A stretch of 64,000 nucleotides of DNA, taken from Sumerlaeia bacterium. Lineage in GTDB: Bacteria > Sumerlaeota > Sumerlaeia > SLMS01 > JAHLLQ01. Within the stretch, counting starts at the first letter, position 1, and the number at the start of each line of letters is the position of its first letter. This document shows positions 3,296 through 55,256 of this stretch, piece after piece. The DNA lies in NCBI GenBank assembly GCA_040219255.1, contig JAVJSW010000059.1:1-64000 (forward strand), read 5' to 3'. The notes below the pieces were generated by a model that was given only the letters and a program-made list of their open reading frames with translations, did no database searches and had not been told where the DNA came from. Made by a program: the position numbers and the translations under genes.

Positions 3296-3300
3296 AAATC

Positions 3301-3407
3301 ACCACGGAGGCACGGAGACACGAAGATTTGTTTCAGTGCCCCACAACGTGAGAGAATCCTTTTTTTGTTCCTGGAATTTGATCTCTGTGTCTCTGTGTCT
3401 CTGTGGT
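3301..3407. repeat. gene-less inverted-repeat hairpin element (GxxExxY-element type)
   Basis: arms 3301-3327 accacggaggcacggagacacgaagat and 3381-3407 atctctgtgtctctgtgtctctgtggt; 22/27 complementary. Confidence 0.85.
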
Positions 3408-4349
3408 AAAATCTTTCTACCGATCACGTTTGTCCTCCTCCTCGCTGGCTGCTCTCCCCAGCCCGGGGCGACGCCGCCTTCGGCGGTGCTGGGGCATCAG
3501 GGGCGGGCTCCGGGGGCGTTTTCCAAACCGCGCGCCATTGCGATCGATGGCCTGAATCGCCTCGCGGTGATCGATCGCACGGGCCGGATTCAGACGTTCG
3601 ACTTGCGGACTCTCGCTCTGCTCGAGGAATGGGAGCTTCCCAGCTACAGCAACGGCACGCCCACGGGCATGACGCTCGACCCCGTGGACGATACGATCTG
3701 GCTGGCCGATACGCATTATCAACGCATTCTGCATTACGGCTGGGATGGCACGTTGCTCGGCAGTTTCGGCGAGTCGGGCACCGGCCCGGGCCAGATGATC
3801 TTCCCCACCGATGTGGCGCTCGATCCGGACGGCGAGACCCTCTGGGTGGTCGAGTACGGGCACCGCGCCCGGTTGATGCAGTTCACCCGCGGCGGCGATT
3901 TCGTCCGCGAATGGACCACCGAACCCTACGAGTACACCGACGCCCAGCGCCCCCAGGCTCTCGCCATCGGAGAGGACGGCTTGATTTACGTGGCCGACGC
4001 GGGTGTGAATCGGGTTCTGGTGTTCAGCCGCGAGGGCGAGTTGCTGCGCTCCTGGGGCGAAGCGGGTAACGCGGCGGGCGAGCTTTGGTTTCCCTACGAC
4101 ATCGCCCTCGGTCCGGATCGGACGCTCTACATTTCGGAATGGGGCAACAGCCGCGTCAGCCATTTCACGCAAGAGGGCGAATTTCTGGGCTTCTGGGGCA
4201 TTCCCGGTCACGATCCGGGAATGCTCTGGCAGCCGTGGGGCGTCGCAATCGGCCCGGGCGGTCAATTGGCCGTTGCGGATACCGAGAATCATCGCGTTCA
4301 ATTAATCGATCGCCCCGAGAAAGACTTCACCAAGGGAACGCAAATCTAA
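3378..4349 (+). CDS. NHL-repeat beta-propeller lipoprotein (start uncertain: GTG 3336, TTG 3378 or GTG 3387)
   Basis: lipobox LLAGC; repeated 'F/P.DVAL', 'YVAD..N.RV..F...G' NHL blades. Confidence 0.85.
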   Translation: MISVSLCLCGKIFLPITFVLLLAGCSPQPGATPPSAVLGHQGRAPGAFSKPRAIAIDGLNRLAVIDRTGRIQTFDLRTLALLEEWELPSYSNGTPTGMTLDPVDDTIWLADTHYQRILHYGWDGTLLGSFGESGTGPGQMIFPTDVALDPDGETLWVVEYGHRARLMQFTRGGDFVREWTTEPYEYTDAQRPQALAIGEDGLIYVADAGVNRVLVFSREGELLRSWGEAGNAAGELWFPYDIALGPDRTLYISEWGNSRVSHFTQEGEFLGFWGIPGHDPGMLWQPWGVAIGPGGQLAVADTENHRVQLIDRPEKDFTKGTQI

Positions 4350-4358
4350 GCCTCGCTC

Positions 4359-7310
4359 ATGGCTCTTCACTTCGCCCGGCCCGAATATCTGCTCTTGCTT
4401 GTGCTGCTGCCCCTCGCCTGGCTGGTGGCGCGGCGGTTACGCACGCTGGGCGCGGGACGCAAAACCACCATTCTCGCCCTGCGCACGCTGATCCTCGCCC
4501 TTCTGGTCCTCGCCCTCGCCCAGCTCGAATGGCGCAGCCGCGCCAAGGATCTGACTGTTTATTTCCTGCTTGATCAATCCGACTCGATTCCGGCCGAGCT
4601 GGCCGAGCGCTCCACCGAACTCGTTCAGGAATTCATGCAGCGCAAAACCCCCGGCGACGAAGCCGGCATCATCGTCTTCGGCCGCGAACCGAGCGTCGAG
4701 ACCTACGCCTCCACCACCGCCGAATTCGACGGCAAGATCAACAGCACCGTCCAGGGCGTGCGCACCGATATTCAGCAGGCCGTTTCCCTCGCTCTCTCCG
4801 CCTTTCCCAACGACCGACTGAAACGCCTCGTGCTGTTCACCGACGGCAACGAGAACTCCGGTTCGTCGCTGGAAGTGGCCCGCCTCGCCCGCAACAGCAA
4901 CGTGGCGCTGGACCTGGTGCCGCTGCGCTACGACGAGCGTCAAGACGTCCAGATCGACAAGCTGATCGTCCCCCAGCAAATCGCCGCCGACACGCCCTTC
5001 GAAATCAAGGCGTTCCTCTCCAGCGCGACCAACACGTCGGGTCGGCTGCGGCTCTATCGCGATGGCGAACTGATCGTGGATCAGGAGGTCGAGGTCGCCG
5101 CCGGGCGCAATCCTCCCCTCATTATCCCGCAACGGCTCGAAGAAGGCGGTTTCCACAACTACCGCGCCACCTTCGAAGTCCCCGGCGACAGCCGCACGCA
5201 GAACAACCGCGCCGAAGCCTTTACCCACGTCAAGGACGAGCCCCGGGTGCTCTATGTGGAGGGCGATCAGACCAACCGCAATTACCTGACGGCGGCGCTG
5301 CGGGCCGAGAAAATCCAGGTCGATTTCGCGTCGGCGTCGGAAATTCCCTACTCGCTCAGCGAAATCCAGAGCTACGACTCGATCATCCTGTCAAACGTCC
5401 ACGCCAGCTCCATGAGCCGCGATCAGATGAAAATGTTCGAGCGCGCCGTCCACGATCTCGGTGTGGGTCTGGTGATGATCGGCGGCGAGGACAGCTTCGG
5501 CGCCGGCGGCTATCAGGACACGCCCATTGAGGACGCCCTGCCGGTGACGATGGACGTGAAACAGAAGAAGGTGCTGCCGAACGGCGCTCTGGCGATCATC
5601 CTGCACACGGCGGAAATTCCCCAGGGCAACGCCTGGGCGCGCGATATTTCCATCGCCGCGCTGGACGTGCTTTCCGCCCAGGACTACTTCGGGTTGATCT
5701 ACTATGGCCCCAAACCGGGCCAGGGTTTCGGCGGCGGCGCCGGCTCGATCGTCGAAACCTGGTCCTGGGAGCCCGGCATGCAGCAGACCGGCAACAAACG
5801 CGAAATGCGCTCGATCATTCGCGGCATCCAGCCCATGGACATGCAGGTCTTCGATCCCACCATGGAAATCGCTTACCAGGGCCTGAAAGACATCAAGGCC
5901 CAGGCCAAGCATATCATCATCATCAGCGACGGCGACCCGGCCCCGCCCAAGCAAACCCTGGCCAATGCCATTCGCGACGAGGGCATCACGATTTCGACCG
6001 TGGCCATCGCGCCCCACCACGGCCAGACGGTGGAAACGATGGAACGCCTGGCCTACTGGGGCGGCGGAGAATTCTACTATCCGAAATCCGCCACCGAACT
6101 GCCCCGCATCTTTATCAAGGAAGCCAGCATCGTCCGCCGCTCCTTGATTTACGAAGAACGCTTCGATCCCGTTTACGACGCCCCGAGCGAAATCACCGCC
6201 GGCTTTTTCGATCTCCCAGCGCTCGAGGGCTACGTCGTCACCAGCGATAAGGAACTGGCCACCATCGCCCTGCGCTCGCACAAGGACGATCCCCTCCTGG
6301 CGCATTGGCGCTATGGCCTGGGCAAGACCGTCGCCTTCACCAGCGACGCCAAGAACAAGTGGGCCTCCGATTGGGTGCAGTGGACCGGGTTTTCCAAGTA
6401 CTGGAGCCAACTCGTCCGCTGGTCCATGCGGGAAACGAGCAGCAGCAACTTCCAGGTCAACACCGAGCTGCGTGGCGGCAAGGGCATCGTCACACTGGAC
6501 GCCGTGGACATCGACGGCGATTTCCGCAACTTCCTGGAATTCAACGCCAACGTCATCGGTCCCGACATGGAGCCCCAGCCGCTGACCGTGCGCCAGGTGG
6601 CGCCGGGCCGCTACCAGGGCGAATTCGACGCCGACGAAGTGGGCACCTACATGCTTTCCATGCGCACCGGCGAGGACGAGCAGCCGGAGCTGATCACGAG
6701 CGGTGTGTCGCTGTCCTACTCGCCCGAGTACCAAGCCGTGCGCAGCAACGACGAGTTCATCGACCGCATCGCGAAAGAATCCAACGGCACCGTGGTCGGC
6801 AGCGGCTACAATCCCTTCGAGCGCAACCTGCCGCCGACCGAGCGCCCCCGCCCTCTTTGGCCGTGGCTGCTGCTGGCGGGGCTGCTGCTGGTGCCCGCCG
6901 ATGTGTTCGTGCGGCGCGTGTACCTGGACTGGGGCGACGTAGCCGCGGGAATCAGAAAGTACGCCGGCAGCGTTTTCGGCATCTTCCGCAAAGGCCCCGA
7001 CGTGGAGCAGCGCAGCGAGTCGATGGGCAGCCTCTTCGCCGCCAAGAGCCGCGCCAAGCAAACGGACGAAGAGCGCCAGGCCGCCGCCGCTCAGCAACAA
7101 GACCGCTCGGCCCTGCGCGAACGCCTGGCCCAGCAGGCCCAGGAAAAACAGGGCGAACCGAGCGTCTTCACCGAAGAAGGCCGAGGCCAAGCCCCCGCCC
7201 GCGTCCAAGGCAAACAAACCGTCTCGGCCAGCGACGCCAGCGAAGAGAAGCCGAGCGGCGGCCTGGCGGGGCTGAAGAAGGCGAAGGAACGGGCGAGGAA
7301 GAAGATGTGA
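4359..7310 (+). CDS. vWA-domain membrane protein with BatA-like N-terminus and GATase1-like domain
   Basis: 'F.RP.YLLLL' N-terminus; MIDAS 'LLDQSDS' and 'FTDGNEN'; 'GLVMIGGEDSFGAGGY'; 'WRYGLGKTVAFTSD'. Confidence 0.9.
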   Translation: MALHFARPEYLLLLVLLPLAWLVARRLRTLGAGRKTTILALRTLILALLVLALAQLEWRSRAKDLTVYFLLDQSDSIPAELAERSTELVQEFMQRKTPGDEAGIIVFGREPSVETYASTTAEFDGKINSTVQGVRTDIQQAVSLALSAFPNDRLKRLVLFTDGNENSGSSLEVARLARNSNVALDLVPLRYDERQDVQIDKLIVPQQIAADTPFEIKAFLSSATNTSGRLRLYRDGELIVDQEVEVAAGRNPPLIIPQRLEEGGFHNYRATFEVPGDSRTQNNRAEAFTHVKDEPRVLYVEGDQTNRNYLTAALRAEKIQVDFASASEIPYSLSEIQSYDSIILSNVHASSMSRDQMKMFERAVHDLGVGLVMIGGEDSFGAGGYQDTPIEDALPVTMDVKQKKVLPNGALAIILHTAEIPQGNAWARDISIAALDVLSAQDYFGLIYYGPKPGQGFGGGAGSIVETWSWEPGMQQTGNKREMRSIIRGIQPMDMQVFDPTMEIAYQGLKDIKAQAKHIIIISDGDPAPPKQTLANAIRDEGITISTVAIAPHHGQTVETMERLAYWGGGEFYYPKSATELPRIFIKEASIVRRSLIYEERFDPVYDAPSEITAGFFDLPALEGYVVTSDKELATIALRSHKDDPLLAHWRYGLGKTVAFTSDAKNKWASDWVQWTGFSKYWSQLVRWSMRETSSSNFQVNTELRGGKGIVTLDAVDIDGDFRNFLEFNANVIGPDMEPQPLTVRQVAPGRYQGEFDADEVGTYMLSMRTGEDEQPELITSGVSLSYSPEYQAVRSNDEFIDRIAKESNGTVVGSGYNPFERNLPPTERPRPLWPWLLLAGLLLVPADVFVRRVYLDWGDVAAGIRKYAGSVFGIFRKGPDVEQRSESMGSLFAAKSRAKQTDEERQAAAAQQQDRSALRERLAQQAQEKQGEPSVFTEEGRGQAPARVQGKQTVSASDASEEKPSGGLAGLKKAKERARKKM

Positions 7311-7768
7311 TGGGAGAGAAAGAAATTCACCGCAGAGGCGCGGAGAGCGCTGAGATGGAATGGGGAAATGACCGGCTGACCGGCGAAGTCATCGCCGCAG
7401 CGATCGAAGTGCATCGCTTCCTAGGGCCGGGCTTGCTGGAAAGCGCGTATCAGGGTTGTCTCGCCACTGAGTTGGATCTGAGGAGATTAGGCTATCGGAG
7501 AGAGGTCGAACTGCCCTTGATCTATAAGGGAAACGCGGTGGATTGCTCCTATCGGCTAGATTTTGTCGTCGAAGAGAAACTCGTTCTGGAACTCAAGTCG
7601 GTGACCTCCTTGGAACCCATCCATCACGCTCAGGTCCTGACTTATCTTCGATTGTCGTCTTACCACCGGGCTCTCTTGATAAACTTCAATGTCCCACTCC
7701 TGAAAGATGGCATCAAACGTATCGTCCTCTCCAACAAATCCTCAGCGCCCTCCGCGCCTCTGCGGTGA
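7310..7768 (+). CDS. GxxExxY protein (PD-(D/E)xK superfamily); alternative start 7355
   Basis: 'AAIEVHRFLGPGLLESAYQ', 'YRLDFVVE', 'LELKSV', 'HHAQVLTYLRLS', 'LLINFN'; ATG overlaps the vWA stop (TGATG); host-atypical codon usage. Confidence 0.93.
   Translation: MGEKEIHRRGAESAEMEWGNDRLTGEVIAAAIEVHRFLGPGLLESAYQGCLATELDLRRLGYRREVELPLIYKGNAVDCSYRLDFVVEEKLVLELKSVTSLEPIHHAQVLTYLRLSSYHRALLINFNVPLLKDGIKRIVLSNKSSAPSAPLR
7327..7768. mobile_element. putative inverted-repeat-bounded element carrying the GxxExxY gene
   Basis: arms 7327-7354 tcaccgcagaggcgcggagagcgctgag and 7741-7768 ctcagcgccctccgcgcctctgcggtga; 27/28 complementary; mobility is inferred. Confidence 0.65.
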
Positions 7769-7797
7769 TTTTTCTTCCCCCAAGGACCCCCCCTCCC

Positions 7798-8811
7798 ATG
7801 CCTGAAATGTCCATCGAGCAAGCCGCCGCCGCCTTTCGCCAGGAATACGAGGCGGTGTACAATGAAATCCAGAAGATGATCGTCGGTCAGGGCGATGTGA
7901 TCGAAGGCGTCTTGATGTGTCTGTTCTCGGGGGGCAACGTGCTCCTCGAGGGCGTGCCGGGGTTGGGCAAGACGATGCTGATCCGCACGCTGTCCGAGGT
8001 TCTCGACCTGCCCTTCTCGCGCATTCAATTCACCCCGGACCTGATGCCCGCCGACATCGTGGGCACGAATATCGTGCAGGAAAACCCCGAGACCGGCCGC
8101 CGCGAGATGGTGTTCCAGAACGGTCCGATCTTCAGCAGCCTGGTCCTCGCGGACGAAATCAACCGCGCCACCCCCAAAACTCAGTCCGCCATGCTGGAAG
8201 CGATGCAGGAGAAGCAGGTCACCGCCGGTGGCCAGCGCTATTTCCTCGAAAAGCCCTTCTTCGTCATGGCGACACAGAACCCGCTCGAGCAGGAAGGCAC
8301 CTATCCGTTGCCGGAAGCGCAGCTCGACCGCTTCCTCTACAAGCTGCTGGTACCCTTCCCGAACCGCGCCGAGCTGATCGAAATCCTCAACCGCACCACG
8401 ATGGAGCATTCTCCGGAAATCAACAAGGTCATGACGCGCGAACGGCTTGTGCAATGGATGACGTTCGTGCGCCGCATCGTCGTGGCGCCGCACGTCCAGG
8501 ACTACGCCGTGCGCCTGCTCCTCTCCACCCACCCGCAGAGCGAATTCGCCACCGACATCACGAAACGCTACGTGCGTTTCGGCGCCAGCCCCCGCGGCGC
8601 CCAGGCCCTTATCCTGACCGGCAAGATCAAAGCCCTGCGCGCCGAACGCTACAACGTCGCCTTCGCCGACGTCGCCGCCGTGGCGCTCAACACGCTGCGC
8701 CACCGCATCATCCTCAATTTCGAAGCCGAAGCCGAAGGCATCACCCCCGACATGGTGATCCAGCAACTCCTGAAGGACGTGCCGCGGGAAGTGGCCGGGG
8801 CGAAAGCGTGA
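7798..8811 (+). CDS. moxR: MoxR family AAA+ ATPase
   Basis: Walker A 'EGVPGLGKT'; 'RIQFTPDLMPADI'; 'LADEINRATPKTQSA'; 'EGTYPLPEAQLDRF'; 'GASPR'. Confidence 0.95.
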   Translation: MPEMSIEQAAAAFRQEYEAVYNEIQKMIVGQGDVIEGVLMCLFSGGNVLLEGVPGLGKTMLIRTLSEVLDLPFSRIQFTPDLMPADIVGTNIVQENPETGRREMVFQNGPIFSSLVLADEINRATPKTQSAMLEAMQEKQVTAGGQRYFLEKPFFVMATQNPLEQEGTYPLPEAQLDRFLYKLLVPFPNRAELIEILNRTTMEHSPEINKVMTRERLVQWMTFVRRIVVAPHVQDYAVRLLLSTHPQSEFATDITKRYVRFGASPRGAQALILTGKIKALRAERYNVAFADVAAVALNTLRHRIILNFEAEAEGITPDMVIQQLLKDVPREVAGAKA

Positions 8812-14195: not shown

Positions 14196-14345
14196 CCCGC
14201 TCACCCCAAGTCCGCGAGGGTTCGCAAGCGCGTTGAAAACATCGGGAGAGCGGGCAGTATCGGGCTTCCGGGGTGAGGGAACCACCGGTTACCGTAGCGG
14301 GCCTGCGCCGGATTCTCACCGGTCTTCCTGTGGCGCGCTCCGTGT
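14196..14345 (-). promoter_or_regulatory. cobalamin riboswitch (compact, class-II-like)
   Basis: minus strand: AGGAAGACCGGTGAGAATCCGGCGCAGGCCCGCTACGGTAA...GGAAGCCCGATACTGCC (B12 box); closing pair gagcg/cgctc; downstream hairpin ccctcgcggacttgggg contains CTCGC, able to pair with L5 GTGAG; lies upstream of pduO. Confidence 0.85.
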
Positions 14346-14494
14346 TTTTCAATGCCATCACCGCCGAGCGGCGGCGCCTTGGCAAGGGCAAAGGCCCGGA
14401 TGCGGCGGTTTTGCCCATTGCATTGCCCCGCGCTCTGGCCGGATGCTTGCTTCCTTGAAACCCGATTCGCACCACCGAGGAGACGCTCCCTTTC

Positions 14495-37646: not shown

Positions 37647-37924
37647 CGTGATGGAAACCTGGGAAAATGAAAGAGTCGAGCGCCCGGGAGCGCATCGCAT
37701 GGCAACGGTAGAGACTCCGGGCCGTTTGTCAATCCCATCCCCCGGCTATGTCCCCATTCCCAATGAATCGCATGATTAGTAAATCACGATGGCGCTGGGC
37801 TCCGATCCGATTTCGCCGATTTTCCGGAATAGCCGAAATTCAGACCCGTACAATCGGGGGGCACGAATCGGGCTAATGCAACCACCCGAGGAGCCCCGCA
37901 CCTCTCTGTTCGGGGGATCGAACG

Positions 37925-39900: not shown

Positions 39901-39905
39901 TTTAA

Positions 39906-40021
39906 CCGCAGATAAATAGGATAAATAAGATGACGTTCAATCCACGGGATTGGCGAGAGCCAGTGATTTCTTAGGAAGCGTCGCAAAGCAGAAACATCCT
40001 GTTCATCCTATTCATCGGCGG
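39906..40021. repeat. gene-less inverted-repeat hairpin element (GxxExxY-element type)
   Basis: arms 39906-39932 ccgcagataaataggataaataagatg and 39995-40021 catcctgttcatcctattcatcggcgg; 22/27 complementary. Confidence 0.85.
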
Positions 40022-40030
40022 CCAATTCCT

Positions 40031-41386: not shown

Positions 41387-41815
41387 GGCGTCTGGTTCCA
41401 TCCTGATCGGGGGAAAGAGTCGTGGCGCGTGCCGCCGGGTGAAGAGGAGCGCGCCGCTGCGTTGTTGTGGGGCGAAGTCCTGCCACGGGGCGGGCGGGAA
41501 AATCAAACAGGAACTTGTTGCAGCGATCTTGTTTCATCCAGAAGAGGCGACGCCCGATTCGGAAAATCACGCGAAATAATCGCGCGGCTTTCGCTATGAC
41601 GGGCACGGTAGAAGACCATGGTTGCGCGACTTAGAGCGCAAGACCCAGGGGAACCGGTTGCAGGCTTCCCGTTTCCCCTTTACTTCCGAAAAACCACACT
41701 CATAATTGAATGACAAGAGATGTTTCGAAACCGCCCGGTTCAACTTCGATTTTAGAACGGATTTTCGATCTGGGCCGTTGCCGCCACGTCATCGATCCAA
41801 TCAGGGAGGGATCCG

Positions 41816-45724: not shown

Positions 45725-47523
45725 CCTCGTCCTCCGGCGACAATCCGACCCGCATCCTGTCCGCCGCCGCGCGCGACAAGACACCGCCCCAGATGATCGG
45801 GCCCTATCGCGTCATCCGGCGCCTGGGAGAAGGCGGCATGGGCGAGGTCCTGCTCGCCGAGGACGCCAAGCTCGGCCGCCATGTCGCCATCAAACTGATC
45901 CGCCGCGAGCTCGTCACGGCGCCCCAGTTCCTCGAACGCTTCGAGCGCGAGGCCAAACTCTGCGCCCGCCTCAACCACCCCCGCGTCGTCAGCCTCTATC
46001 AGGTCGGCGAGGTGGACGGAAACCCCTACCAGGTCCTGGAGTATGTCAAGGGCATGACTCTGCGCGAGCTGCTGCGAACCCCGCCGCCGCTGCCGCTGGC
46101 CAAGGTCTGCGAGTTCTTCGCCCAGGCCGCCGAAGGCCTCGAGGCGGCCCGCGCCGCCGGCATCATCCACCGCGATATCAAACCCGGCAACATCATGGTG
46201 CGCGACGACGGTCTGGTCAAGGTCATGGACTTTGGCCTCTCCAAAGGCCAGGACATGGACGGCCTGACCCAGACCCAGGCCGCCCTCGGCACGCCGGAAT
46301 ACATGGCGCCGGAGCAGGCCGAAGGCAAACCGCTGGACCATCGCGCGGACATCTATGCCCTGGGCATTTCCCTCTTCCAGTGCGTCACCGGCTACCTGCC
46401 CTTTCGCGCCAGCTCCGCCGTCAGCACCATGATGAAGCAGGTCCACGAGCCCCTGCCCGCCGACCCTAAACTGCAAGCCATCGCCGGCGGCCGGCTCGAC
46501 GGTCTGATCCGCCGCATGACGGCCAAGGACCCGGCGGACCGGCCCTGGCGCTATATCGATGTGATCGAGGAGCTGCGCCTTCTGGCGGCCCTTCTGGCGG
46601 AGGACGGACAGCTCTCCGCCGCCGAGGTGGACTTGGTGCCATCGCCCCGGGGAAACGGCCGCACACCCAAACCCGCCTACGATCCCCAGCGCGCTTCCGG
46701 CACGCCGCCGGTCGGCTACCTGGCGCCCGCGCCCGCCAAACGGCGCAGCTCCTCCTCGGTCCAGATCGGGCGCCAGCGCCGCCGTCTGCAAACGCTGACC
46801 TACGCCGGGGTGGGTCTGCTACTGCTGGGGGCCTTGGTGGGCGGCGGGCTTTGGGCCACGGGCGGTTTCCCGGGAAAGAGCGCTGCCGCGCCGGATTCCA
46901 AGGCCCAACCCGTGCCGGGCGGCGACGCCGCCAAGCCGGCCGTGACGCCCACGCCCGCACCCACGCCTGATGATGGCCGCATGCGCATCACGCTGCGCAG
47001 CTCCGGCCGCACCGCCACATTGGCGGACCTGCTCGGCGGCCTCCAGGCCCACGGCGTGAACTTTGTCGTCCGCGATCAGATCGATCCCCGCGCCTATCCC
47101 GCCTCCTTCGTGTTCGAACAAACCCCGCCCGACGACATCGTCCGCGCTGTAACCACCGGCGCGGGCTGGAGCACCGAGGACCAGGGCGGCATACTGTTCC
47201 TCGCGCGCGGCGCCGCACCCCCCCAGCAATCCGTCCGCGCCGCCCGCGCGGGCCAAGACACCACCGGCCTCCCCAACGTCAGCCTCCGCGCCATGAGCAA
47301 CCCCGTCACGCTTCTGGAAGCCTGTGAGGGCTTTCGTTACGAAGCCGGCGTCGATTACCTCATCCTCGGCGAAGGCCTCACCCGATGGCCCATCACCAAC
47401 GTCGGCCTGACCAACGCCAACCTGGGCACCGTGATGACGTTACTGCTGCAAAACGGCGCCCCGATGGAGTGGGCTATGGTGGGAAACACGCTGGTGATCG
47501 TGCCGAAGGGGACGCGGAACTAG
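45721..47523 (+). CDS. Hanks-type Ser/Thr protein kinase with TM and extracytoplasmic domain
   Basis: 'LGEGGMGEV'; 'VAIK'; 'HRDIKPGN'; 'DFG'; 'GTPEYMAPE'; ATGA overlap with the TPR gene. Confidence 0.95.
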   Translation: MTSSSGDNPTRILSAAARDKTPPQMIGPYRVIRRLGEGGMGEVLLAEDAKLGRHVAIKLIRRELVTAPQFLERFEREAKLCARLNHPRVVSLYQVGEVDGNPYQVLEYVKGMTLRELLRTPPPLPLAKVCEFFAQAAEGLEAARAAGIIHRDIKPGNIMVRDDGLVKVMDFGLSKGQDMDGLTQTQAALGTPEYMAPEQAEGKPLDHRADIYALGISLFQCVTGYLPFRASSAVSTMMKQVHEPLPADPKLQAIAGGRLDGLIRRMTAKDPADRPWRYIDVIEELRLLAALLAEDGQLSAAEVDLVPSPRGNGRTPKPAYDPQRASGTPPVGYLAPAPAKRRSSSSVQIGRQRRRLQTLTYAGVGLLLLGALVGGGLWATGGFPGKSAAAPDSKAQPVPGGDAAKPAVTPTPAPTPDDGRMRITLRSSGRTATLADLLGGLQAHGVNFVVRDQIDPRAYPASFVFEQTPPDDIVRAVTTGAGWSTEDQGGILFLARGAAPPQQSVRAARAGQDTTGLPNVSLRAMSNPVTLLEACEGFRYEAGVDYLILGEGLTRWPITNVGLTNANLGTVMTLLLQNGAPMEWAMVGNTLVIVPKGTRN

Positions 47524-48488
47524 ACAGCCGCCACCTGCGCCTCGGCGTTACGCTTGATGCTCCGCAGCACTCGGCCATGGATGCGGTGGATGATCGCGTC
47601 GGTCCACGGACGCCAGTAGAACCCCGGCGACAGCGATTGCCGGTACCACGTCGTGCCCTCGACGCGGGTCGTGCCGTCGGGCTGGCGGATCAGGAGAAAC
47701 TGCCCCCGTTCGCTGCGAAACGAATCGTGCACGTGCGCTGGCGAGATGTCGTGAAAGGGGTTCCACTCCTCCATCACCGGCGGCGTCTCGATCACGGAAA
47801 ACGCCAGAAGGCGCGGCTCGTCCCAGGTGGTGATGGGTTCGACGAAGGTGCCCGTCGAGAAGTCACAATAGCGGATGGCGCCTCGGCCCTCGCCCCGGAT
47901 GCGGGCGCGGATCGGATAGGCGAGGCCCTGGCGGAAGAAGAATCCCGGATCCTCCTCGATTTCGCTGAACGCCACGATCTGGTCCCACACGACGTCCGGC
48001 GGCGCGGCGATGTGCATGGGCGTAGTGACGGAAACCAATTCGCCGCGCGGCTCGCGCAGCACCGCCTCGGCGCCCATAATCGCGGGCGAGAGCGCCAGCA
48101 GGCCCACGAGCATCGAGCGCTCGGCGCAGCCAGAGGCCGCTTCCCCCATCCGATACACGATGTAGCAGCCCAGAAACGTCAGCGGAATCACGATGGGGGC
48201 CGCCATCAGGATACAGATCACCCCTTCCTGGGCGAAGGCCAACAGCCCCGCGCTGATCGTCACGCCCAGCGAAGCCGTGGCTGAAACGACGTCCCCAATG
48301 GTTCCAGCGGATCCCCGCAGCACCAACGTCATCTGGAGCACCCCGGCCAGCACCGGTAGCACCACGAAAAGGTAAACCCCGTAGGATTGGAGGACGTGGG
48401 CGCCGAGGAAGACGCTCAGCAGCACGAAGAAGGAGGTCAGGATGGTGGGGACGCCGAAGCGTTTGGTGAAGAGGAATGCGTTACTCAT
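47520..48488 (-). CDS. membrane protein with SRPBCC/START-like domain
   Basis: N-terminal TMs, 'EGVICILMAAP'; 'IAAPPDVVW'; 'FSTGTFVEPITTWD'. Confidence 0.8.
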   Translation of the reverse strand: MSNAFLFTKRFGVPTILTSFFVLLSVFLGAHVLQSYGVYLFVVLPVLAGVLQMTLVLRGSAGTIGDVVSATASLGVTISAGLLAFAQEGVICILMAAPIVIPLTFLGCYIVYRMGEAASGCAERSMLVGLLALSPAIMGAEAVLREPRGELVSVTTPMHIAAPPDVVWDQIVAFSEIEEDPGFFFRQGLAYPIRARIRGEGRGAIRYCDFSTGTFVEPITTWDEPRLLAFSVIETPPVMEEWNPFHDISPAHVHDSFRSERGQFLLIRQPDGTTRVEGTTWYRQSLSPGFYWRPWTDAIIHRIHGRVLRSIKRNAEAQVAAV

Positions 48489-48503
48489 CAGAAAGATTTG
48501 TCC

Positions 48504-48521
48504 TTTCAGAAATTTTTGAAA
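48504..48521. promoter_or_regulatory. putative operator of the GbsR/MarR regulator (copy 2)
   Basis: palindrome TTTCAGAAATTTTTGAAA; 17/18 identical to 49086-49103. Confidence 0.7.
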
Positions 48522-48542
48522 CACAAGGTCGCAAAGAAAACT

Positions 48543-49070
48543 TCACTTCCCCGCCAGATCGATCAGGAATCGGTTCAGCCGCTCGCTCATCTGGGCCAAG
48601 CGCCGCAGCGTGGCCGTCGGCATGCGGTCGAGTTGCTCGTAGGCGGCGGTCATTTGCTCCATGAAATCCAGCATCGGGGCGATTTTTTCGGCGGTCGCGG
48701 CGTCGCCATCTTCCTGGGCTTCCATTGCGCACTGGCGCAGCATCGTTAGTGTCGGGTCGATTTCGCGCTTCTTCCGCTCGGCCAGGATGCGCCGGAACAT
48801 TTCCCAGATATCGTCGAGCGTGGTGAAGTAATCGCGCCGGTCTCCGAGCCGCTGCTCGACCCGCACGATGCCCCAGCTTTGCAGTTCCTTGAGCGACATG
48901 CTCACGTTCGACCGCGCGATCTGCAGCGTGGCGGCGATTTCCTCGGCGTGGATGGGCTCGGGCGACAGGTACAGCAGCGCATGAATCTGAGCCACCGTCC
49001 GATTGATCCCCCACTTGGTCCCCATCTCGCCCCAGTGGAGGATGAGTTTACGCTGTGTATCGGTGAGCAT
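48543..49070 (-). CDS. GbsR/MarR family transcriptional regulator
   Basis: 'ILHWGEMGTKWGINRTVAQIHALL'; 'ARSNVSMSLKEL..WG'; 'GDRRDYF'. Confidence 0.92.
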   Translation of the reverse strand: MLTDTQRKLILHWGEMGTKWGINRTVAQIHALLYLSPEPIHAEEIAATLQIARSNVSMSLKELQSWGIVRVEQRLGDRRDYFTTLDDIWEMFRRILAERKKREIDPTLTMLRQCAMEAQEDGDAATAEKIAPMLDFMEQMTAAYEQLDRMPTATLRRLAQMSERLNRFLIDLAGK

Positions 49071-49085
49071 GAGTGGCTTCTCCTG

Positions 49086-49103
49086 TTTCAGTAATTTTTG
49101 AAA
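49086..49103. promoter_or_regulatory. putative operator of the GbsR/MarR regulator (copy 1)
   Basis: palindrome TTTCAGTAATTTTTGAAA just upstream of the regulator's RBS. Confidence 0.75.
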
Positions 49104-49176
49104 TACGAGAAGTGTATGTGCGCGTCAAGGGCGAATCGACGATGGCTACAAGCGCTCGCTGACACCTCGGAAATCG

Positions 49177-49286
49177 GCCACGGATGAGCACGGATAGCAA
49201 ACCGGATACAAGGAAGACATTCGTTCATGCCAAACTAGCCTTAGAGACAGAGAACAATCCGAATCCTATCCGTGCCAATCCGTGGC
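49177..49286. repeat. gene-less inverted-repeat hairpin element (GxxExxY-element type)
   Basis: arms 49177-49197 gccacggatgagcacggatag and 49266-49286 ctatccgtgccaatccgtggc; 19/21 complementary. Confidence 0.85.
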
Positions 49287-50285
49287 GTTTTCCCCCACCC
49301 GCTCCGGGTACAAACTCGGTTCCGCCTCGCGCGCCAGGTCCACCAGCAGCCTCCGCAGCCGTCCCGGCCGGGCCGAGGCGCGTTCGATGCGGCGGGCGCC
49401 ACGGTCTCGCAGGTGCTGCCTCACGCGGGCGATTTCTTTGCGCGAGGCGCTTTTCGTTCCCAGCAGCAGAGCGCTCCACGGGCGCGCGGCCAGGTCCGTC
49501 AGAAGCTCGCCCAGCCGCCGCGCCCGCGCGTCGAAGAGCCGCTCGCCGCCTCGCCCGTCCGCCAGGCTCCACAGCACCAGCGCCGCGTCCGCCTCCAGCG
49601 GCACGGACTCGAAGGCCAGGCAGGCGTCCAGGTCCGCGGCTTCGCGCCGCACCAGGTAGGCGAGCGGCACGCCATCGAGCGTCGCCACGTGCTCGGCCAT
49701 GTCCGTCTCGGACTTATCGAGGTCGTGGAAATCGTAGAGGCGCCAAGGCTGGCCGGCGGTGCGCTGGCGTTCGCGCTCGACGCCGCGAAAGACGATAAAG
49801 GGATCGAAGGTCTCGGCCAGCCCCAGCGCCACCGCGGCGATCTGGCAGCGTGGTGCGCCGAACCGCCGCACCGCGTCCCAGAGCGTCCGCTTGAGCCATT
49901 CGCGTTCGTCCAGGGTGAAGCGGGCTACATGGAGGCGGGCGCGCTCCTCGCCTCCCTGGCGCATAAGCATGTGCGGCCCATGGCTGTCGAAGCCCCAGGC
50001 CAGCTCGTCCAGTTCGCGCCATTTCAGGGCGATGTGATCTTCGATGGCGCTGGCCGCGCGGCCCTTGATGGCCAGTTCCTGCGGCGTACCCCGCAGCGTC
50101 AGGTACGGTGGCCGGTTCGGAAACAGGAGCGTCTCCGCCGCCACCCAGGCCTTCACGGCCAGGTTGCCGCCGCGCGCGCGGCTGCGGATCAGGACGTGGC
50201 CATTGTCGTTGGCCCGCACCTCGAACGCGTCCGGTGGATCCGTCTCGAACAGCCAGCGCGCCTGGGGCGGCACGGGGCGGCTCAT
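49266..50285 (-). CDS. hypothetical protein
   Basis: 339-aa ORF; ATGA overlap with the upstream gene; host codon usage. Confidence 0.7.
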   Translation of the reverse strand: MSRPVPPQARWLFETDPPDAFEVRANDNGHVLIRSRARGGNLAVKAWVAAETLLFPNRPPYLTLRGTPQELAIKGRAASAIEDHIALKWRELDELAWGFDSHGPHMLMRQGGEERARLHVARFTLDEREWLKRTLWDAVRRFGAPRCQIAAVALGLAETFDPFIVFRGVERERQRTAGQPWRLYDFHDLDKSETDMAEHVATLDGVPLAYLVRREAADLDACLAFESVPLEADAALVLWSLADGRGGERLFDARARRLGELLTDLAARPWSALLLGTKSASRKEIARVRQHLRDRGARRIERASARPGRLRRLLVDLAREAEPSLYPERVGENATDWHG

Positions 50286-51265
50286 GGTTCGCGGTCGGCC
50301 GAGGCCAGTGCGTCCTGCAACGCCGCGAACACCAGCGGGATCATTATTTCATGATGGCCCGTCAGGCTGTAGCCCCGCCCGCCGCCGGTACGCGTGGGGC
50401 GGCTGACGACGTTCATGTTCGCGCGATAATGCTGGATCATATCGAAATTGACGGCGGTGAAGTTCTCGACCCGGTGGCCGAGATTCCGCGCCACCGTCAG
50501 AGCCTTCAGGAAAACCTCGGGCAGCAGCACGGCGCTGCCCAGATTCACCACCACGCCGCCATCGTCCAGGTCCGCGAGCTGACCGGCCAGGAGCTGGAAA
50601 TCGCGGAAGGAGGCCTCGCCCATCAGGGCGCCGTCGGCGCTTGGCTGCTGGTGGATAATATCCGTCCCCACAGCGATATGCACCGTGGCGGGGGTGCTGG
50701 TCTCGGCGCAGGCGGCCAGCAGCGACAGCCCCCGATGGGGCGCGCCGGAGCGGGCGATGGCCTGGCCGATGGCGGCCCCCGCGCCCAGGCCGCTGCCCTC
50801 CAGACCGGCCCGCATGGCGGCGAAGATTCCCTCCGCCGTCTCCCGCGCCATGCCAAAGGTCCCATCGGCCAGACCGGCCTCGACGTCTTCGCTCGTGTGG
50901 CCGAAGTTCGCGATTTCGAAATCGTGGATGGCCCCCGCGCCGTTCAGGCAAAGCGTCGTGATCCACCCGCGGCGGATCATCTCGCACAGCAGCGGCGACA
51001 ACCCGCACTTGATCGGATGCGCCCCCATCATCCACACGACAGCCCGCCGCCGCCGCACGGCCCCGGCCAAGGCCTCGACCACCGCCCGCAAATCCGCCGC
51101 CTTCAGGATATCCGGCAACGTCTCCAGAAACCCCGCCAACCCCACCCCCGGCTCGGGCACGCGGGCCAGCAGCTCAGGCCGCACCTTGCTCTGGCGCGTC
51201 GCGATGTCGATGGTCTTCACACGCGACAGATCGGCGGGCGGTCGGGGCGGGAGGCGGTCGGGCAT
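50282..51265 (-). CDS. deoxyhypusine-synthase-like (DHS-like NAD-binding fold) protein
   Basis: 'MGAHPIKCGLSP'; 'NGAGAIHDFE'; 'TVHIAVGTDIIH'; 'GSAVLLPEVFLKA'; 'GHHEIMIP'. Confidence 0.7.
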   Translation of the reverse strand: MPDRLPPRPPADLSRVKTIDIATRQSKVRPELLARVPEPGVGLAGFLETLPDILKAADLRAVVEALAGAVRRRRAVVWMMGAHPIKCGLSPLLCEMIRRGWITTLCLNGAGAIHDFEIANFGHTSEDVEAGLADGTFGMARETAEGIFAAMRAGLEGSGLGAGAAIGQAIARSGAPHRGLSLLAACAETSTPATVHIAVGTDIIHQQPSADGALMGEASFRDFQLLAGQLADLDDGGVVVNLGSAVLLPEVFLKALTVARNLGHRVENFTAVNFDMIQHYRANMNVVSRPTRTGGGRGYSLTGHHEIMIPLVFAALQDALASADREP

Positions 51266-51419
51266 GGGCGGGGGGGTCTTTCTCCAGAGCTGAACCTCTA
51301 CCGAAAGCCACGGCGCCGCCGGGGGAAAGGCGAAAGCGGAGCGACGGTTTGGGTTGGCTCGATCCGGACCAGGCCGTAGAGAAGAAGCCTGAATCCGCCA
51401 GCAGAATCAGAGAACACCT

Positions 51420-52916
51420 ATGGACAAGGCCACCAAAGCCCTCTTCGCCGCCGCCGCCTCCGGCAATCTCGCCGCGCTGCGCGAGGCCATCGACGCCGGG
51501 GCGGATTTGGAGGCGACGACGGGCGTGACCGAGGCCACGCCGTTGTTCCGCGCTGTGCAGAAGAACCAAAGCCTTCCGGCGGAGGCGTTATTGAAGGCCG
51601 GTGCCAACCCGAGGCATGAATGCCGTCTTTCGGGTTATTCAATTTCCGTGCTGAACTACGCGCTCTATCTGCAAAACACCGGCGTGGCCGAGGCATTGCT
51701 GAATCACGATGGGGCGTTAGTGAACGAACCCGACGGCTGCGGTTGGCGACCGCTCCATCTGGCGGTCCATAAAGATGAGCCGGACCTGATCGCATTGTTG
51801 TTGGCAAGTGGTGCGGACCCGGCGCTGGGGCGCGGCGGCATGACATCGAACGGCCCATTCGAATATCTGAGCTTTACCACGTCGAGCCGATTGGCGGCGG
51901 ACATGACGCCCCTGATGGGTGCGGTGGGGTGGAAGAAGCTGAAGTCGATGAGAGCGTTGGTTGCGGCGGGAGTCCGCCTGGATGCGCGGACGCCAGCGGG
52001 GAATTCGGCGCTTGTTCTTGGGGAGGGCTACCAGCCCAGGCGGCGCGGGGCGCCCTTGACGAAAACGAGCTATCAGGTGGTGGCCTATCTGTTGGCGTGG
52101 CTCGAGCTATTCCCGCCGACGGCCGATTTGGAAGGTCAGCTAACCTGGCGAAACAATCCAGTGCTGATGCGGACGACGGAGCCGTTGCTGGCGGCGGCCC
52201 GCAAACAATTGGCAAAGGACCTGAAGGGGGACGCCAAGCCATCGAAGAGCAACAAGTCCGACGAGGAAGCGGCAAAACGGGCTTTGGAAGCGGCCTCAAT
52301 GGCCGGCGACGTGGCGGGCCTGCGCGCCGCCCGGGCTGAGGGACTGAGCCTCGCCGAACCGCTCAACAAGAAACTCGAAACGCCCCTGCACCTCGCAGCC
52401 CGCGGCGGCCACAGGCTCGCGGTCGAGTATCTGCTTCAGGCGGGCGCCGATCCGCTTGCTGAAAACAAGTTTCAATTCCGGCCCTTGGCCGAGGCGGTGC
52501 GGGCGTGGAAGCGCAACCTGGATACGATCCGACTCCTGGCGCCGTTGACGCCGATGGACGAGCTCCTGACCGATGGGTGTACGCCCCTCGTTTATGCGGC
52601 CAGCGTAGGGAGTCTGGAGTTGATCGAAATCTTTGTCGAGGCGGGCGCGCCCCTCGATCAGCACGAACTGCATGGCCAGATCCTCGAATATCCCGTTTTC
52701 GCTGTCCTTTGCTCGGGAATGAGCGGCAACCGCATGACGCAAGCGCTGAGGATTCTCTTCGATCGTGGCGCGCCGCTGGAGTACGAAGACCTCTATATCG
52801 GATATAGATTCCGGGAAGCTTGGGAGAAAACGATTCCCAAAATCGCCAAGCACTTTCCTGACGTCGTCATCCGCGACCGAGACGACAATGTCTATGTATT
52901 CCGCTCCCTCCTCTAA
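51420..52916 (+). CDS. ankyrin repeat protein
   Basis: 'TPLFRAV', 'PLHLAV', 'TPLHLAARGGH', 'GADP' repeats. Confidence 0.9.
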   Translation: MDKATKALFAAAASGNLAALREAIDAGADLEATTGVTEATPLFRAVQKNQSLPAEALLKAGANPRHECRLSGYSISVLNYALYLQNTGVAEALLNHDGALVNEPDGCGWRPLHLAVHKDEPDLIALLLASGADPALGRGGMTSNGPFEYLSFTTSSRLAADMTPLMGAVGWKKLKSMRALVAAGVRLDARTPAGNSALVLGEGYQPRRRGAPLTKTSYQVVAYLLAWLELFPPTADLEGQLTWRNNPVLMRTTEPLLAAARKQLAKDLKGDAKPSKSNKSDEEAAKRALEAASMAGDVAGLRAARAEGLSLAEPLNKKLETPLHLAARGGHRLAVEYLLQAGADPLAENKFQFRPLAEAVRAWKRNLDTIRLLAPLTPMDELLTDGCTPLVYAASVGSLELIEIFVEAGAPLDQHELHGQILEYPVFAVLCSGMSGNRMTQALRILFDRGAPLEYEDLYIGYRFREAWEKTIPKIAKHFPDVVIRDRDDNVYVFRSLL

Positions 52917-52924
52917 GGCCACCG

Positions 52925-54511
52925 ATGCGCGACCCTGCCCTTGACAGCCTCCTCGCCCAAGCCGCCCGCCGGGGCGATGTGGCGGAGATGGAGACTTTGG
53001 TCTCGCAAGGCGCCGATCCGCGGGCGGTGGGGGTGCTCTTTGCCGCGGCGCAGGAGGGGCAGGTGCTCAGCGTGGATTGGCTGATCGAACGCGGGGCGGA
53101 CCCCTCGGCGCGCGATGGAGAGGGGCGCAACGTCCTGGAAGCCGCGATGCTGCGAAACCGGGCGGCGTTGGTCAAAGCGCTGCTCGACCGGGGTCTTTTC
53201 GCCGAACCGGACGAGCGCGGGTTTCTGCCGATCCACATGGCGGCGCTCTGTGGGAATCAGTCGATTGTGGAGACGGTGCTGGATTGCGGCGGCGACATCG
53301 AAGGACCCGCCGGAAAGGCAGAGGCTAATGGTTTGCAGAAGTGGTTTCTCAGAAGATTCTTTGACGTGCTGAGCGCTCCCACAGAATTGGAGGATGCCCG
53401 CCCACTTCACATTGCGGTTTTGGCCTCAAACTTGAGTGCTGTGAAGGTGCTTCTCAAATTTGGAGCCTCTGTTCACTCATTAGACGCGCACGGACGAACG
53501 CCGCTGCACTATGATGTCGGAGACAGCTTTGAACCTCACAGGCTGATATTTGCATGCGGCGGAAGCATGCGTGAAATGGACAGTAGCGGCAAGCCCCCAA
53601 CCTACTTCTTGGAACACCAGGACGAAGTGTGGGTTCGGGGACTGCTCCGCCAGGAGCACGCCTCCCTGATCCGAGCACGCGAGAAGGTCCTTTCCGGCGG
53701 CCCCAGGCCAAAATTCAAGCCTAAGTCCGCCAGCAAGAAGCTCTCAGCCGAACTCCTGACGCGGATGGAGCAGGCGGCGATCAGCGGCGACATCGGCGGA
53801 TTGCGGTCTGCCATCGGCCAGGGCGTTGCCGTGGACCAGCGCCTTCGCAGGGGCAAGACACGGGCGATTCATCTCGCGGCGGAGTACGGCCACAGCCTCG
53901 CCATCGAATACCTGATCCAGGCCGGGGCCGATCCGCTGGCTCTGGACGGCGGAGGCAAGTCGCCGATCCACCGCGCGGCGGCTTCGGGCCGGGCCGAAGC
54001 GGTTCGTGTGCTCCTGGACCATGGAACGCCACCGGAACACATGGACAGGTCCGAACGCACACCGCTCGTGGCCGCCGCCGAGCGCGACGGCAACGCCGAG
54101 ACCATCCGCGTCCTGATCGAGGGCGGCGCGGCCGTGGACCAGGCGATGACCAAGAATTACTACGCGGGCCAGACGGCGTTGTTCTTTGCCGTGGCGCGGC
54201 TCAGAGACGACGTGGTCGAAGCACTCCTGGAATGCGGCGCCAACGCCAACCATCGCGATCATCAAGATCGAACGCCGCTGCTGTGGATGGCGGAATTGGC
54301 GGCCTATCAGGTGGAAATGGGACCAACCTCGCCCAGCCGCCGCGTGGCCGAACTCCTGCTCGAGGCTGGCTGCGACCCCAACCTCAAAAACCGCCGAGGC
54401 TACACCATCCACGACGCGGATTACTCGTTCCTGAATCGCGAATTCGCGACGTTTCTTTCGCAGACCGTCCGGCAATTCGAGTCGCGCCAGCGCAAGGCGA
54501 AGAAATCATAA
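52925..54511 (+). CDS. ankyrin repeat protein
   Basis: 'PIHMAA', 'GRTPLHY', 'IHLAAEYGH', 'RTPLVAAA'. Confidence 0.9.
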   Translation: MRDPALDSLLAQAARRGDVAEMETLVSQGADPRAVGVLFAAAQEGQVLSVDWLIERGADPSARDGEGRNVLEAAMLRNRAALVKALLDRGLFAEPDERGFLPIHMAALCGNQSIVETVLDCGGDIEGPAGKAEANGLQKWFLRRFFDVLSAPTELEDARPLHIAVLASNLSAVKVLLKFGASVHSLDAHGRTPLHYDVGDSFEPHRLIFACGGSMREMDSSGKPPTYFLEHQDEVWVRGLLRQEHASLIRAREKVLSGGPRPKFKPKSASKKLSAELLTRMEQAAISGDIGGLRSAIGQGVAVDQRLRRGKTRAIHLAAEYGHSLAIEYLIQAGADPLALDGGGKSPIHRAAASGRAEAVRVLLDHGTPPEHMDRSERTPLVAAAERDGNAETIRVLIEGGAAVDQAMTKNYYAGQTALFFAVARLRDDVVEALLECGANANHRDHQDRTPLLWMAELAAYQVEMGPTSPSRRVAELLLEAGCDPNLKNRRGYTIHDADYSFLNREFATFLSQTVRQFESRQRKAKKS

Positions 54512-54569
54512 GCCTTGTCTTTACAGTCTTTAAACAGTTAGGGATCAAAGGACGGAAGCTTTTTGAAGG

Positions 54570-55256
54570 TCATGGAAATCGCCACGGATCCCCATATCTA
54601 TCCGTGCCAATCCGTGGCTTTACCTCGCCCACCAACCGCCCCCAATCCGGCTCCCCGCCCAGCACCACCGTCTTCCACGCATCCTCGGCCCCGTCGGCCT
54701 CCAGCAACCGCTCCTCCGTCACCGCCAGGATATCCGCGTCGCCGATGATTTCCTGGGCCCGGCGGCGGATGACGCGCGGGTTGGTCTTTGCCTTGGTCGG
54801 GTCTTCGGCGAGCACCACCACCAGCCGCCCGGCCTGGAATTGACGGATCAGGTGCGCCGCCTCGAAGCCGAGCACGACCAGCACATCCGCCCGCTCAAAG
54901 CCCGCCTCGCGCACGATGTCTCCGGCGCGGGGGCGGCTGAAAAGTTCATTGCCGTTCCAGGTTCCATTGCTGTCGAACAGCGGCCACCGCCGCACCGGCA
55001 GCCACGTCCAGGGCGTGAAGACAAAGAGGCCCTCGCACGGATAATGACCCGCCGCCGACTCGCTCCGGCGCGCCGTGCGCCCCGCCCGCCGCGTACCCGC
55101 CAGAGCATCCCACGGCGACACCGGCGGCGCCACATAGGCCACGCGTTGGCCCTCAGCAAGAAGAAACCGCGCGAGGCCACTGGCCCGCGAACCCTCGCCC
55201 CCCCAAGGCCCATCCGCCAGAATCCCCCAGCGTTCCAGCTCCCCGGCGCCGATCAT
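54570..55256 (-). CDS. glycosyltransferase (GT-B) N-terminal-domain-like protein, possibly truncated
   Basis: 'V.YVAPPVSPW', 'FTPWTWLP', 'ADILAVT'; only 228 aa; last residues are encoded by the hairpin element. Confidence 0.5.
   Translation of the reverse strand: MIGAGELERWGILADGPWGGEGSRASGLARFLLAEGQRVAYVAPPVSPWDALAGTRRAGRTARRSESAAGHYPCEGLFVFTPWTWLPVRRWPLFDSNGTWNGNELFSRPRAGDIVREAGFERADVLVVLGFEAAHLIRQFQAGRLVVVLAEDPTKAKTNPRVIRRRAQEIIGDADILAVTEERLLEADGAEDAWKTVVLGGEPDWGRLVGEVKPRIGTDRYGDPWRFP
54581..54618. repeat. internally deleted copy of the 49177-49286 hairpin element
   Basis: gccacggat-ccccatat-ctatccgtgccaatccgtggc; 54598-54618 is identical to 49266-49286. Confidence 0.85.

Follow-up and report, generated by a model that had tools for sequence, protein, structure and literature searches.

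What are the short hairpin elements that lie at gene ends along this stretch of a Sumerlaeia genome, and how are they related to the one nuclease gene in it that sits between arms of the same design? The window analysed, i.e., the whole stretch of 64,000 nucleotides (nt) at positions 1-64000 of contig JAVJSW010000059.1 (G000:C59 in our numbering of genomes and contigs), belongs to a draft assembly of a Sumerlaeia bacterium (GCA_040219255.1; 5.35 Mb in 83 contigs, 92% complete). An initial annotation of the window had described four gene-less elements of this kind, plus one carrying a gene of the GxxExxY family, and had taken the former to be non-autonomous derivatives of the latter that target gene boundaries. 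All five are present at the places described, with coordinates read from the sequence and the limits of one refined from 39906-40021 to 39905-40022. We see about an even chance that the five belong to a family of small elements inserted at the DNA level, here called hairpin-armed cassettes, and that the GxxExxY protein acts on their arms.

The five elements and the GxxExxY cassette

The elements and the gene are as follows, the letters denoting arm classes that are set out further below.

Positions 3301-3407, no strand: gene-less hairpin of class A, 107 nt, with 27-nt arms at 3301-3327 and 3381-3407
Positions 7329-7766, plus strand: gene-carrying cassette of class C, with 26-nt arms at 7329-7354 (left) and 7741-7766 (right)
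Positions 7355-7768, plus strand: GxxExxY gene of 137 amino acids (aa), PD-(D/E)XK nuclease superfamily (TIGR04256, 2.4e-41; PF13366, 4.2e-40)
Positions 39905-40022, no strand: gene-less hairpin of class B, 118 nt, with 28-nt arms at 39905-39932 and 39995-40022
Positions 49177-49286, no strand: gene-less hairpin of class B, 110 nt, with 21-nt arms at 49177-49197 and 49266-49286
Positions 54581-54618, no strand: truncated class B element, 38 nt, read directly from the sequence

All share one architecture, in which each end is built of two to four inverted units of 8-10 nt, about one helical turn apart, with a conserved terminus that is (A/T)-rich and then reads RCCRC...; the arms of tandem sub-repeats that had been described are borne out. 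The units are CACGGAG/CACAGAG (8 nt) in the element at 3301, whose interior of 53 nt has 42% G+C and whose inverted complementarity continues outward, more weakly, to about 3296-3412; GCGCNGAG in the gene-carrying cassette, whose inverted repeat reaches outward to 7314-7781 (37 nt, 89% complementary); of the GATAAATAG type (9 nt) at 39905; and CACGGATRG (10 nt) at 49177, where the inverted repeat spans 21 nt and is 90% complementary. In the element at 54581, a 9-nt remnant of a left arm is separated by 9 nt of filler from a complete right arm of 20-21 nt identical to 49266-49286, which would be consistent with the internal deletion proposed for it. The interiors of the elements have 42-50% G+C, compared to 64% for the whole window.

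The full form of the cassette is one GxxExxY gene fitted between the arms, and the gene-less hairpins are partners with the same arm classes. Specifically, the gene at 7355-7768 starts right after the left arm and has its last codons and stop within the right arm, and its product scores above the profile cut-offs (140.7 bits vs. 35 for TIGR04256; 137.2 bits vs. 22 for PF13366, PDDEXK_3). In an alignment of 27 proteins, the motif residues G26, E29 and Y32 and the nuclease triad D69, E79 and K81 are all invariant, as are G24, Q93, N110, F111 and R122. The predicted structure (predicted local distance difference test, pLDDT, 92) looks like a generic PD-(D/E)XK fold, and its top structural neighbours are all PD-(D/E)XK nucleases (the BpuSI nuclease domain and Cas4 SSO0001 at Z 7.4, Hjc at Z 5.8; all Z scores are <8 and none is outstanding), with 4ic1 as the top Foldseek match (E 3.3e-3); no solved structure related by sequence was found.

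The association between gene and arms extends beyond the window. This genome has five GxxExxY genes, four of which are directly bracketed by arms, one each of classes A, B, C and D; the class B paralogue lies at about 23.8 kb on G000:C35. The suggestion that arm classes match the flanks of GxxExxY genes stands at the level of classes but not at that of the finer subtypes, those of the elements at 49177 and 54581 being without a matching resident gene. The fifth gene (G000:C49:77714-78049) has no arms and falls in a long-branched subclade (support 100/100) of three members, including L087 and L089, all armless; it may be a settled, non-cassette form. Counting 28 relatives along with this genome, we found 76 GxxExxY genes and left out four at contig edges, and among the remaining 72 (five own and 67 from relatives) a bracketing inverted repeat that beat all 100 shuffles was found for 46. 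In the bracketed genes, the left arm usually ends 0-30 nt ahead of the ATG, the right arm begins 0-25 nt past the stop, and every arm is an array of 7-11-nt units, albeit of many kinds. Several cassettes have the same unit cores on both arms in permuted order, which, judged from the sequence, looks more like arrays of protein-binding sites than like a stem. Matches to the protein also occur in eight plasmid records, all typed non-mobilizable, e.g., from Bacteroides finegoldii, with the gene between radA and a gene for an FAD protein and with TTCACCACAGAGGAC arms/terminus, and from Sphingomonas parapaucimobilis, with the gene between fabD and fabG; phage records gave no protein match at E 1e-5.

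A dispersed family and its link to the GxxExxY proteins

To what extent do such arms recur elsewhere in the genome? Inverted-repeat pairs anchored on the terminal motifs numbered 89 in the whole genome vs. 15 in a reversed-sequence control, and curation by eye removed 22 of the 89 (18 chance or contig-end artefacts, where the reversed control predicts 15; three register-shifted duplicates; and one outer pairing of two tandem elements), leaving 67 elements, i.e., a dispersed family whose design is that of the arms around GxxExxY genes, as had been proposed. Three-unit arms numbered 195 genome-wide vs. 11 in the control, and only 66 of these lie within the 67 catalogued pairs; hence, 67 is a lower bound and the family has at least this many paired members. 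In the window, the 8-mer RCCRCRGA by itself is no more frequent than expected (29 matches vs. 35.3); the signal lies in the pairing and the unit arrays. The pairing was anchored on motifs because a filter for arm self-similarity at a fixed period had been swamped by codon periodicity and had missed real arms of variable unit length. The catalogued elements divide as follows, the counts including three gene-bearing elements.

Class A, CACNGAG units: 28 elements
Class B, units ending GAT: 29 elements
Class C, GCGCNGAG units: 7 elements
Class D, GCAAAG: 3 elements

The elements also occur within one another. Three are entirely enclosed by others and two are arranged in tandem, and the nesting is directional, with class B within class A/C arms: A/C units are found outside on both sides of 5/29 class B elements vs. 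18/1914 control windows (nested examples are C2:24337-24512, C54:20294-20438, C77:175589-175697, C18:69835-69953 and C30:47987-48096), while the reverse nesting was found for 1/28 class A elements. One relative (G025) has tandem arrays of two-layer composites (L137-L139). Several elements of more than one class have, directly inside their arms, a motif of 13-15 nt (GGGTGGTTGGCGGGG or the complement of this), which is not enriched genome-wide (124 vs. 141 in the control); its sites include G000:C12:126877, C60:147042, C46:64722 and other intergenic places.

Arm type co-segregates with the protein. In a maximum-likelihood tree of 68 of the proteins (four rows were left out for length or non-letters), the deepest split was supported at 100/97. 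The side of 28 rows holds 11 of the 12 rows labelled B, comprising all 11 true GAT/AAT-ending arm sets; the twelfth B-labelled row, L056, has CGCAGAG units and was mislabelled by the rule. The side of 40 rows holds all 14 class A and all nine class C (GAG/AAG-ending) sets, and this genome has members of both protein clades, with a different arm type for each. Across the whole tree, the arm labels need 31 changes vs. 39.0 when shuffled, and none of 200 shuffles was as low; that is, arm type tracks protein clade.

Arm abundance tracks the gene as well, in line with the co-occurrence that had been named as a test of the association. The class A arm pattern gave 0-81 matches per genome (0-4 when read backwards), with 8-81 in the 13 genomes that have a class-A-armed gene; the remaining 18 gave 0-12, apart from one outlier at 46 (Mann-Whitney p 1e-5). 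A generic three-unit arm pattern, counted in 44 genomes of a phylum sample that are at least 90% complete, totalled 4097 matches vs. 252 in the backwards control; the median was 76 (4-428) in the 36 genomes with a GxxExxY gene, and the counts in the eight genomes without one were 0, 1, 3, 3, 4, 5, 13 and 25 (Mann-Whitney p 3.6e-5; Spearman rho 0.72). A pair of genomes of the same genus is discordant in the expected way, with the gene and 12 matches in one (G002) and neither in the other (G007).

Placement, insertion sites and two expression-based alternatives

The claim that the elements lie at gene boundaries applies to the whole family: all 67 curated elements are intergenic or overlap a gene end only, based on our own, crude gene calls (3956 genes, 86% coding). 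In the window, the element at 3301 begins 5 nt past a TAG stop; that at 39905, flanked by two minus-strand genes, has a start codon at a distance of 4 nt and a stop codon at 8 nt; the right arm of 49177-49286 constitutes the last six codons and TAG of the minus-strand open reading frame (ORF) 49266-50285; and 54581-54618 falls within the final 16 codons of the minus-strand ORF 54570-55256. Because arms encode the last codons of the latter two ORFs, insertions at gene ends rewrite C-termini. Among the 66 elements with two neighbours, 38 have same-strand, 16 convergent and 12 divergent contexts, and in the same-strand contexts the elements lie at a median of 7.5 nt past the upstream stop and 69 nt ahead of the next start.

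Comparison with relatives, which had been recommended for revealing presence and absence of the elements, uncovered insertion polymorphism. The spacer that holds the gene-carrying cassette (7311-7806, with gene 4359-7310 on one side and 7807-8811 on the other) varies among relatives (L013-L018): it is an empty 30-nt spacer in G001, holds a gene for a four-helix-bundle protein (TIGR02436, 9.7e-35) between arms of another type (GTTGTTAGTG/GTTGG) in G007, and holds other ORFs in G010, G005 and G002. The ORF in G010 and G005 is about 850 nt long, has a DPPFN motif and looks, by eye, like a DNA methyltransferase gene; G002 has more DNA there. At the site of the element at 3301, all 10 syntenic relatives lack the element and have G+C-rich spacers with no two-unit arm. 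At the 39905 site (39901-40030; L019, L020), the same pair of genes is separated in G005 and G010 by an additional ORF of about 750 nt instead, and, more generally, relatives either hold another ORF at the sites of 39905, 49177 and 54581 or match on one side only.

One duplication of a cassette as a unit was also found. G025 carries a near-identical cassette of about 460 nt at two loci with unalignable flanks, and the homology starts at one arm end, TGAACACGAAT, and ends 14 nt past the other (...CACCTAG). Further, class A arms are 93-100% identical to those of relatives over 26-32 nt, compared to about 70% for the flanking genes. Contigs of three metagenome runs from one study, compared with 37001-57000, were short, low-depth pieces with no joints, none of them spanning an element.

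The position of the elements past stop codons, their convergent contexts (16/66) and their stable predicted stems are what one would expect of ordinary host structures, i.e., intrinsic or bidirectional terminators or stabilisers resembling repetitive extragenic palindromes (REPs), that are kept for the sake of expression. We consider this explanation, which the initial annotation had named, in the form of conserved terminators, as the contrary case, highly improbable. A TTTT run occurs within 14 nt past the stem in only 13/71 downstream contexts, the elements occur nested and in tandem, their interiors are long and AT-rich (50-230 nt), and their abundance tracks a nuclease gene. The lack of the 3301 element in all 10 syntenic relatives is an especially strong point.

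Alternatively, the arms might be kept for pairing at the RNA level, as in the intervening sequences (IVSs) of 23S rRNA, with read-through stems being cut by RNase III, operon mRNAs being separated or destabilised, and the ribosome-binding site of the cargo being hidden. The build does match that of the Coxiella burnetii 23S IVS, in which tandem heptamers precede a small ORF, the terminal stem measures 28 bp and excision is by RNase III (PMC4990558, in the parts covered here). The predicted RNA folds are strong, with z-scores of -6.65 (3301), -4.04 (39905), -5.41 (49177) and -4.48 (54581) for the four gene-less elements and 0/200 shuffles folding as well; over half of the contexts (the 38/66 above) lie just past stops within same-strand gene strings; and the purine-rich units hold GGAG/AGGA just 5' of the cargo ATG. 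The mismatches, however, do not bear the mark of selection for RNA pairing. G-U did not exceed A-C mismatches on the transcribed strand in same-strand contexts (56 vs. 63), and wobble positions in 36 gene-bearing cassettes were 30 sense vs. 39 antisense, next to 58 transversion mismatches, although the wobble test showed a per-element skew (overdispersion p 0.007). In addition, 12/66 elements lie between divergent genes, the linkers between units are often non-complementary, the elements are not retained at syntenic sites and match no family in Rfam, and the genome's own 23S rRNA (G000:C56:103441-106372) is 2932 nt long for a 2925-position model and has no insertion. For these reasons an RNA-level role as the main explanation appears quite improbable to us, but RNase III cutting could accompany a DNA element as a by-product, and the RNA and DNA readings may coexist.

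Some other features deserve mention. The only Rfam match in the window and a few structures elsewhere in the genome are these:

Positions 14235-14393, minus strand: cobalamin riboswitch RF00174 (37 bits vs. a gathering score of 31.5)
G000:C6:7548-7676, C60:331674-331790, C16:46382-46497 and C68:157998-158138: second, unrelated inverted-repeat family, GGTAACACGGGCGTC..GCCCGTGACC; GTAACACGG has 23 copies in the genome, and the family does not flank the two Y1_Tnp genes
G000:C49:1-820: CRISPR-like array with repeat GTTTCAATCCACGCCTTCGCAGGAAGGCGAATG, at the contig start and partly folded back on itself
Ends of contigs C1, C12, C14, C38, C48, C53, C65 and C74: perfect or near-perfect foldbacks of 94-139 nt exactly at the contig ends, most likely assembly artefacts; that at C1:78-216 includes class C arms

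Proposed mechanism and comparison with known systems

How might the nuclease and the arms work together? If the elements are hairpin-armed cassettes on whose arms GxxExxY acts, GxxExxY subunits would recognise their own arm type by binding to its repeated units, and the enzyme would cut at or near the arm ends or at the extruded hairpin; host repair or recombination would then copy, move or exchange the DNA between two arms. Gene-less pairs would be acted on in trans, and the nuclease would in this way drive the spread of both forms, including the mobilisation of those that lack it. Such a mechanism would account for uniform arms with differing interiors, for arm type tracking protein clade, and for arms being abundant only where the gene is present.

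Several observations weigh against this reading. The first concerns the interiors. By blastn, those of the gene-less elements are unrelated to each other, save for nested self-hits and one short motif, even where the arms agree in 41 of 42 bases (49177-49286 vs. G000:C60:144973-145091), and six short hairpins fetched from G030 likewise had unrelated interiors; only in G025 was there an exception, a gene-less composite of about 250 nt that is multi-copy with a conserved interior. Because plain copy-and-paste would not predict unrelated interiors, the elements are not copy-and-paste copies of the MITE (miniature inverted-repeat transposable element) or REPIN (REP doublet) kind in this genome, their ends staying uniform while their middles differ. 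The proposal that the gene-less copies are deletion derivatives of GxxExxY elements fared no better, given that 64 interiors were scored with the GxxExxY profile and none exceeded the 99th percentile of shuffles or showed a gene remnant, a comparison that very short or decayed remnants could escape. Nor was a target-site duplication found at the G025 pair or, by eye, in 67 flank pairs.

A number of genomes and genes weigh against the reading as well. No arms were detectable at 26/72 GxxExxY genes, including the divergent subclade with this genome's fifth copy; G012, the outlier with 46 class A matches, has a single GxxExxY gene, which is broken; G055, a one-contig genome, has 25 arm matches and no GxxExxY gene, and G032 has 13 (7 in the control) and no gene; and some arm subtypes here, including that of 49177 and 54581, are without a resident gene of matching arms, in a genome that is 92% complete. 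The statistics across relatives, moreover, ignore shared ancestry, so that relatives are not independent samples. Finally, we know of no strand-transfer activity for a 125-aa nuclease.

One has to consider that the cassettes are mobile or recombining but GxxExxY is mere cargo (e.g., for defence, addiction or repair), with host recombination or replication at hairpins, or another enzyme, making and moving the arms. The four-helix-bundle (TIGR02436) genes of relatives speak for this, since 18/24 of them have the same architecture with other unit types and no nuclease, which implies that mobility may not need GxxExxY, and in G007 the site of the window cassette is itself taken by one of these. 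The Coxiella IVS similarly joins GACAGAT units to an S23p ORF (PMC4990558, parts covered here); and the unrelated interiors, devoid of gene remnants, and the arm matches of G055 fit a cargo role as well. On the other hand, the two cargo families have arms of different unit types in these genomes, the number of arms per genome goes with the presence of GxxExxY, and in this genome we found neither a TIGR02436 gene nor, by eye, arms of the corresponding kind. The nuclease triad is also invariant. Arm type tracking protein clade within GxxExxY points in the same direction, although arms and cargo that were inherited together as a unit would give the same pattern, which is thus compatible with cargo. 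Overall, we regard the cargo explanation as unlikely, albeit a serious contender, and we favor action of GxxExxY on the arms.

A wider proposal follows, one that we advance as possible but rather doubtful: GxxExxY proteins may be the enzymes of an unrecognised class of mobile DNA that would read arrays of 8-10-nt units at both cassette ends and cut there, the host copying, moving or swapping the content. This class would span many phyla, have gene-less dependants, include a second level of parasitism, with class B elements inside class A hairpins, and, together with the four-helix-bundle (IVS) cassettes, account for the hepta- to nonanucleotide repeats of bacteria. If true, it would give a function to PF13366, a large family entered as 'Unknown' in a survey of PD-(D/E)XK proteins (PMC3424549, parts covered here), would explain intergenic short-unit repeats that were catalogued without interpretation (PMC2996986, PMC4692102) and would connect such repeats to rRNA intervening sequences. 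Irrespective of mechanism, elements that lie inside operons, rewrite final codons and break assemblies affect annotation and perhaps operon expression.

How do these elements compare with known systems? We found no literature that links these hairpin arms to GxxExxY, nothing about repeats in the literature on GxxExxY, and, by title or abstract, no description of these cassettes in the literature on MITEs and hairpins. Homing-endonuclease genes and the PD-(D/E)XK nucleases of the Cas4 and RecB type would share no more than the predicted restriction-endonuclease-like fold, and there is no intron or intein context here. Closer at hand are catalogued short-unit repeats. In Geobacter bemidjiensis, 'nonanucleotide repeats TTT[WCCTCTGTG..]nGTGAG' and 'octanucleotide repeats YTT[TCTTTGCG]3TGAGG' were listed (PMC2996986), and Xanthomonas has GGGAATC heptamer arrays in 70-75 convergent pairs (PMC4692102); the parts of these papers covered here treat the repeats as multicopy sequences or G-quadruplex candidates. 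They share the unit cores CACAGAGG and CGCAAAGA with our arms, are intergenic and often form inverted pairs. The same parts of the two papers contain no link to GxxExxY or to cassettes, and neither 'inverted' nor 'hairpin' occurs in the 12 of the 15 files of the Geobacter supplement that were searched (files 13-15 were not).

The 23S IVS of C. burnetii is a 428-nt insertion with an ORF for the S23p four-helix bundle, a terminal stem of about 28 bp and excision by RNase III, in which the arm before the ORF consists of tandem GACAGAT 7-nt units whose number varies among strains; its authors view it as selfish and of unclear origin, the origin of IVSs having been debated since 1990 (all from the parts of PMC4990558 covered here). 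The likeness lies in a small ORF within a terminal inverted-repeat stem of tandem short units, and relatives of our genome have four-helix-bundle cassettes outside rRNA. The elements described here, in contrast, lie between protein genes, carry a PD-(D/E)XK nuclease of the GxxExxY family rather than an S23p/four-helix-bundle protein, or no cargo, and have many gene-less copies.

MITEs are short, gene-less, dispersed elements with terminal inverted repeats. The elements resemble them in all these respects, and the G025 composite is multi-copy besides, but they differ in showing neither a target-site duplication nor a remnant of an autonomous element and, in this genome, in having unique interiors.

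REPs and REPINs, with their RAYT (REP-associated tyrosine transposase) genes, are short intergenic palindromes near gene ends that have a single-gene master flanked by inverted copies of its own repeats. Here too a putative master gene is flanked by its own inverted repeats (in 4/5 cases in this genome and 46/72 overall), and the repeat class co-occurs with the gene across genomes, with the exceptions of G055, G032 and G012. The analogy to REPINs with another enzyme, as first proposed, is apt as regards the enzyme, which is a PF13366 PD-(D/E)XK protein and not an HUH Y1 (IS200/IS605-like) transposase; no arms were found within 500-700 nt of the genome's two Y1_Tnp genes. The analogy fails as regards the spacers, which are not conserved as in copy-and-paste doublets except in the G025 composite, and there is no GTAG/CGTC tag in the arms, which consist of arrayed 8-10-nt units. 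Taken together, the elements are IVS-like or REP-like hairpin repeats with a different associated enzyme, and, should GxxExxY indeed act on them, they would place a nuclease in the role that the RAYT has in the REPIN/RAYT model of domesticated or selfish repeats.

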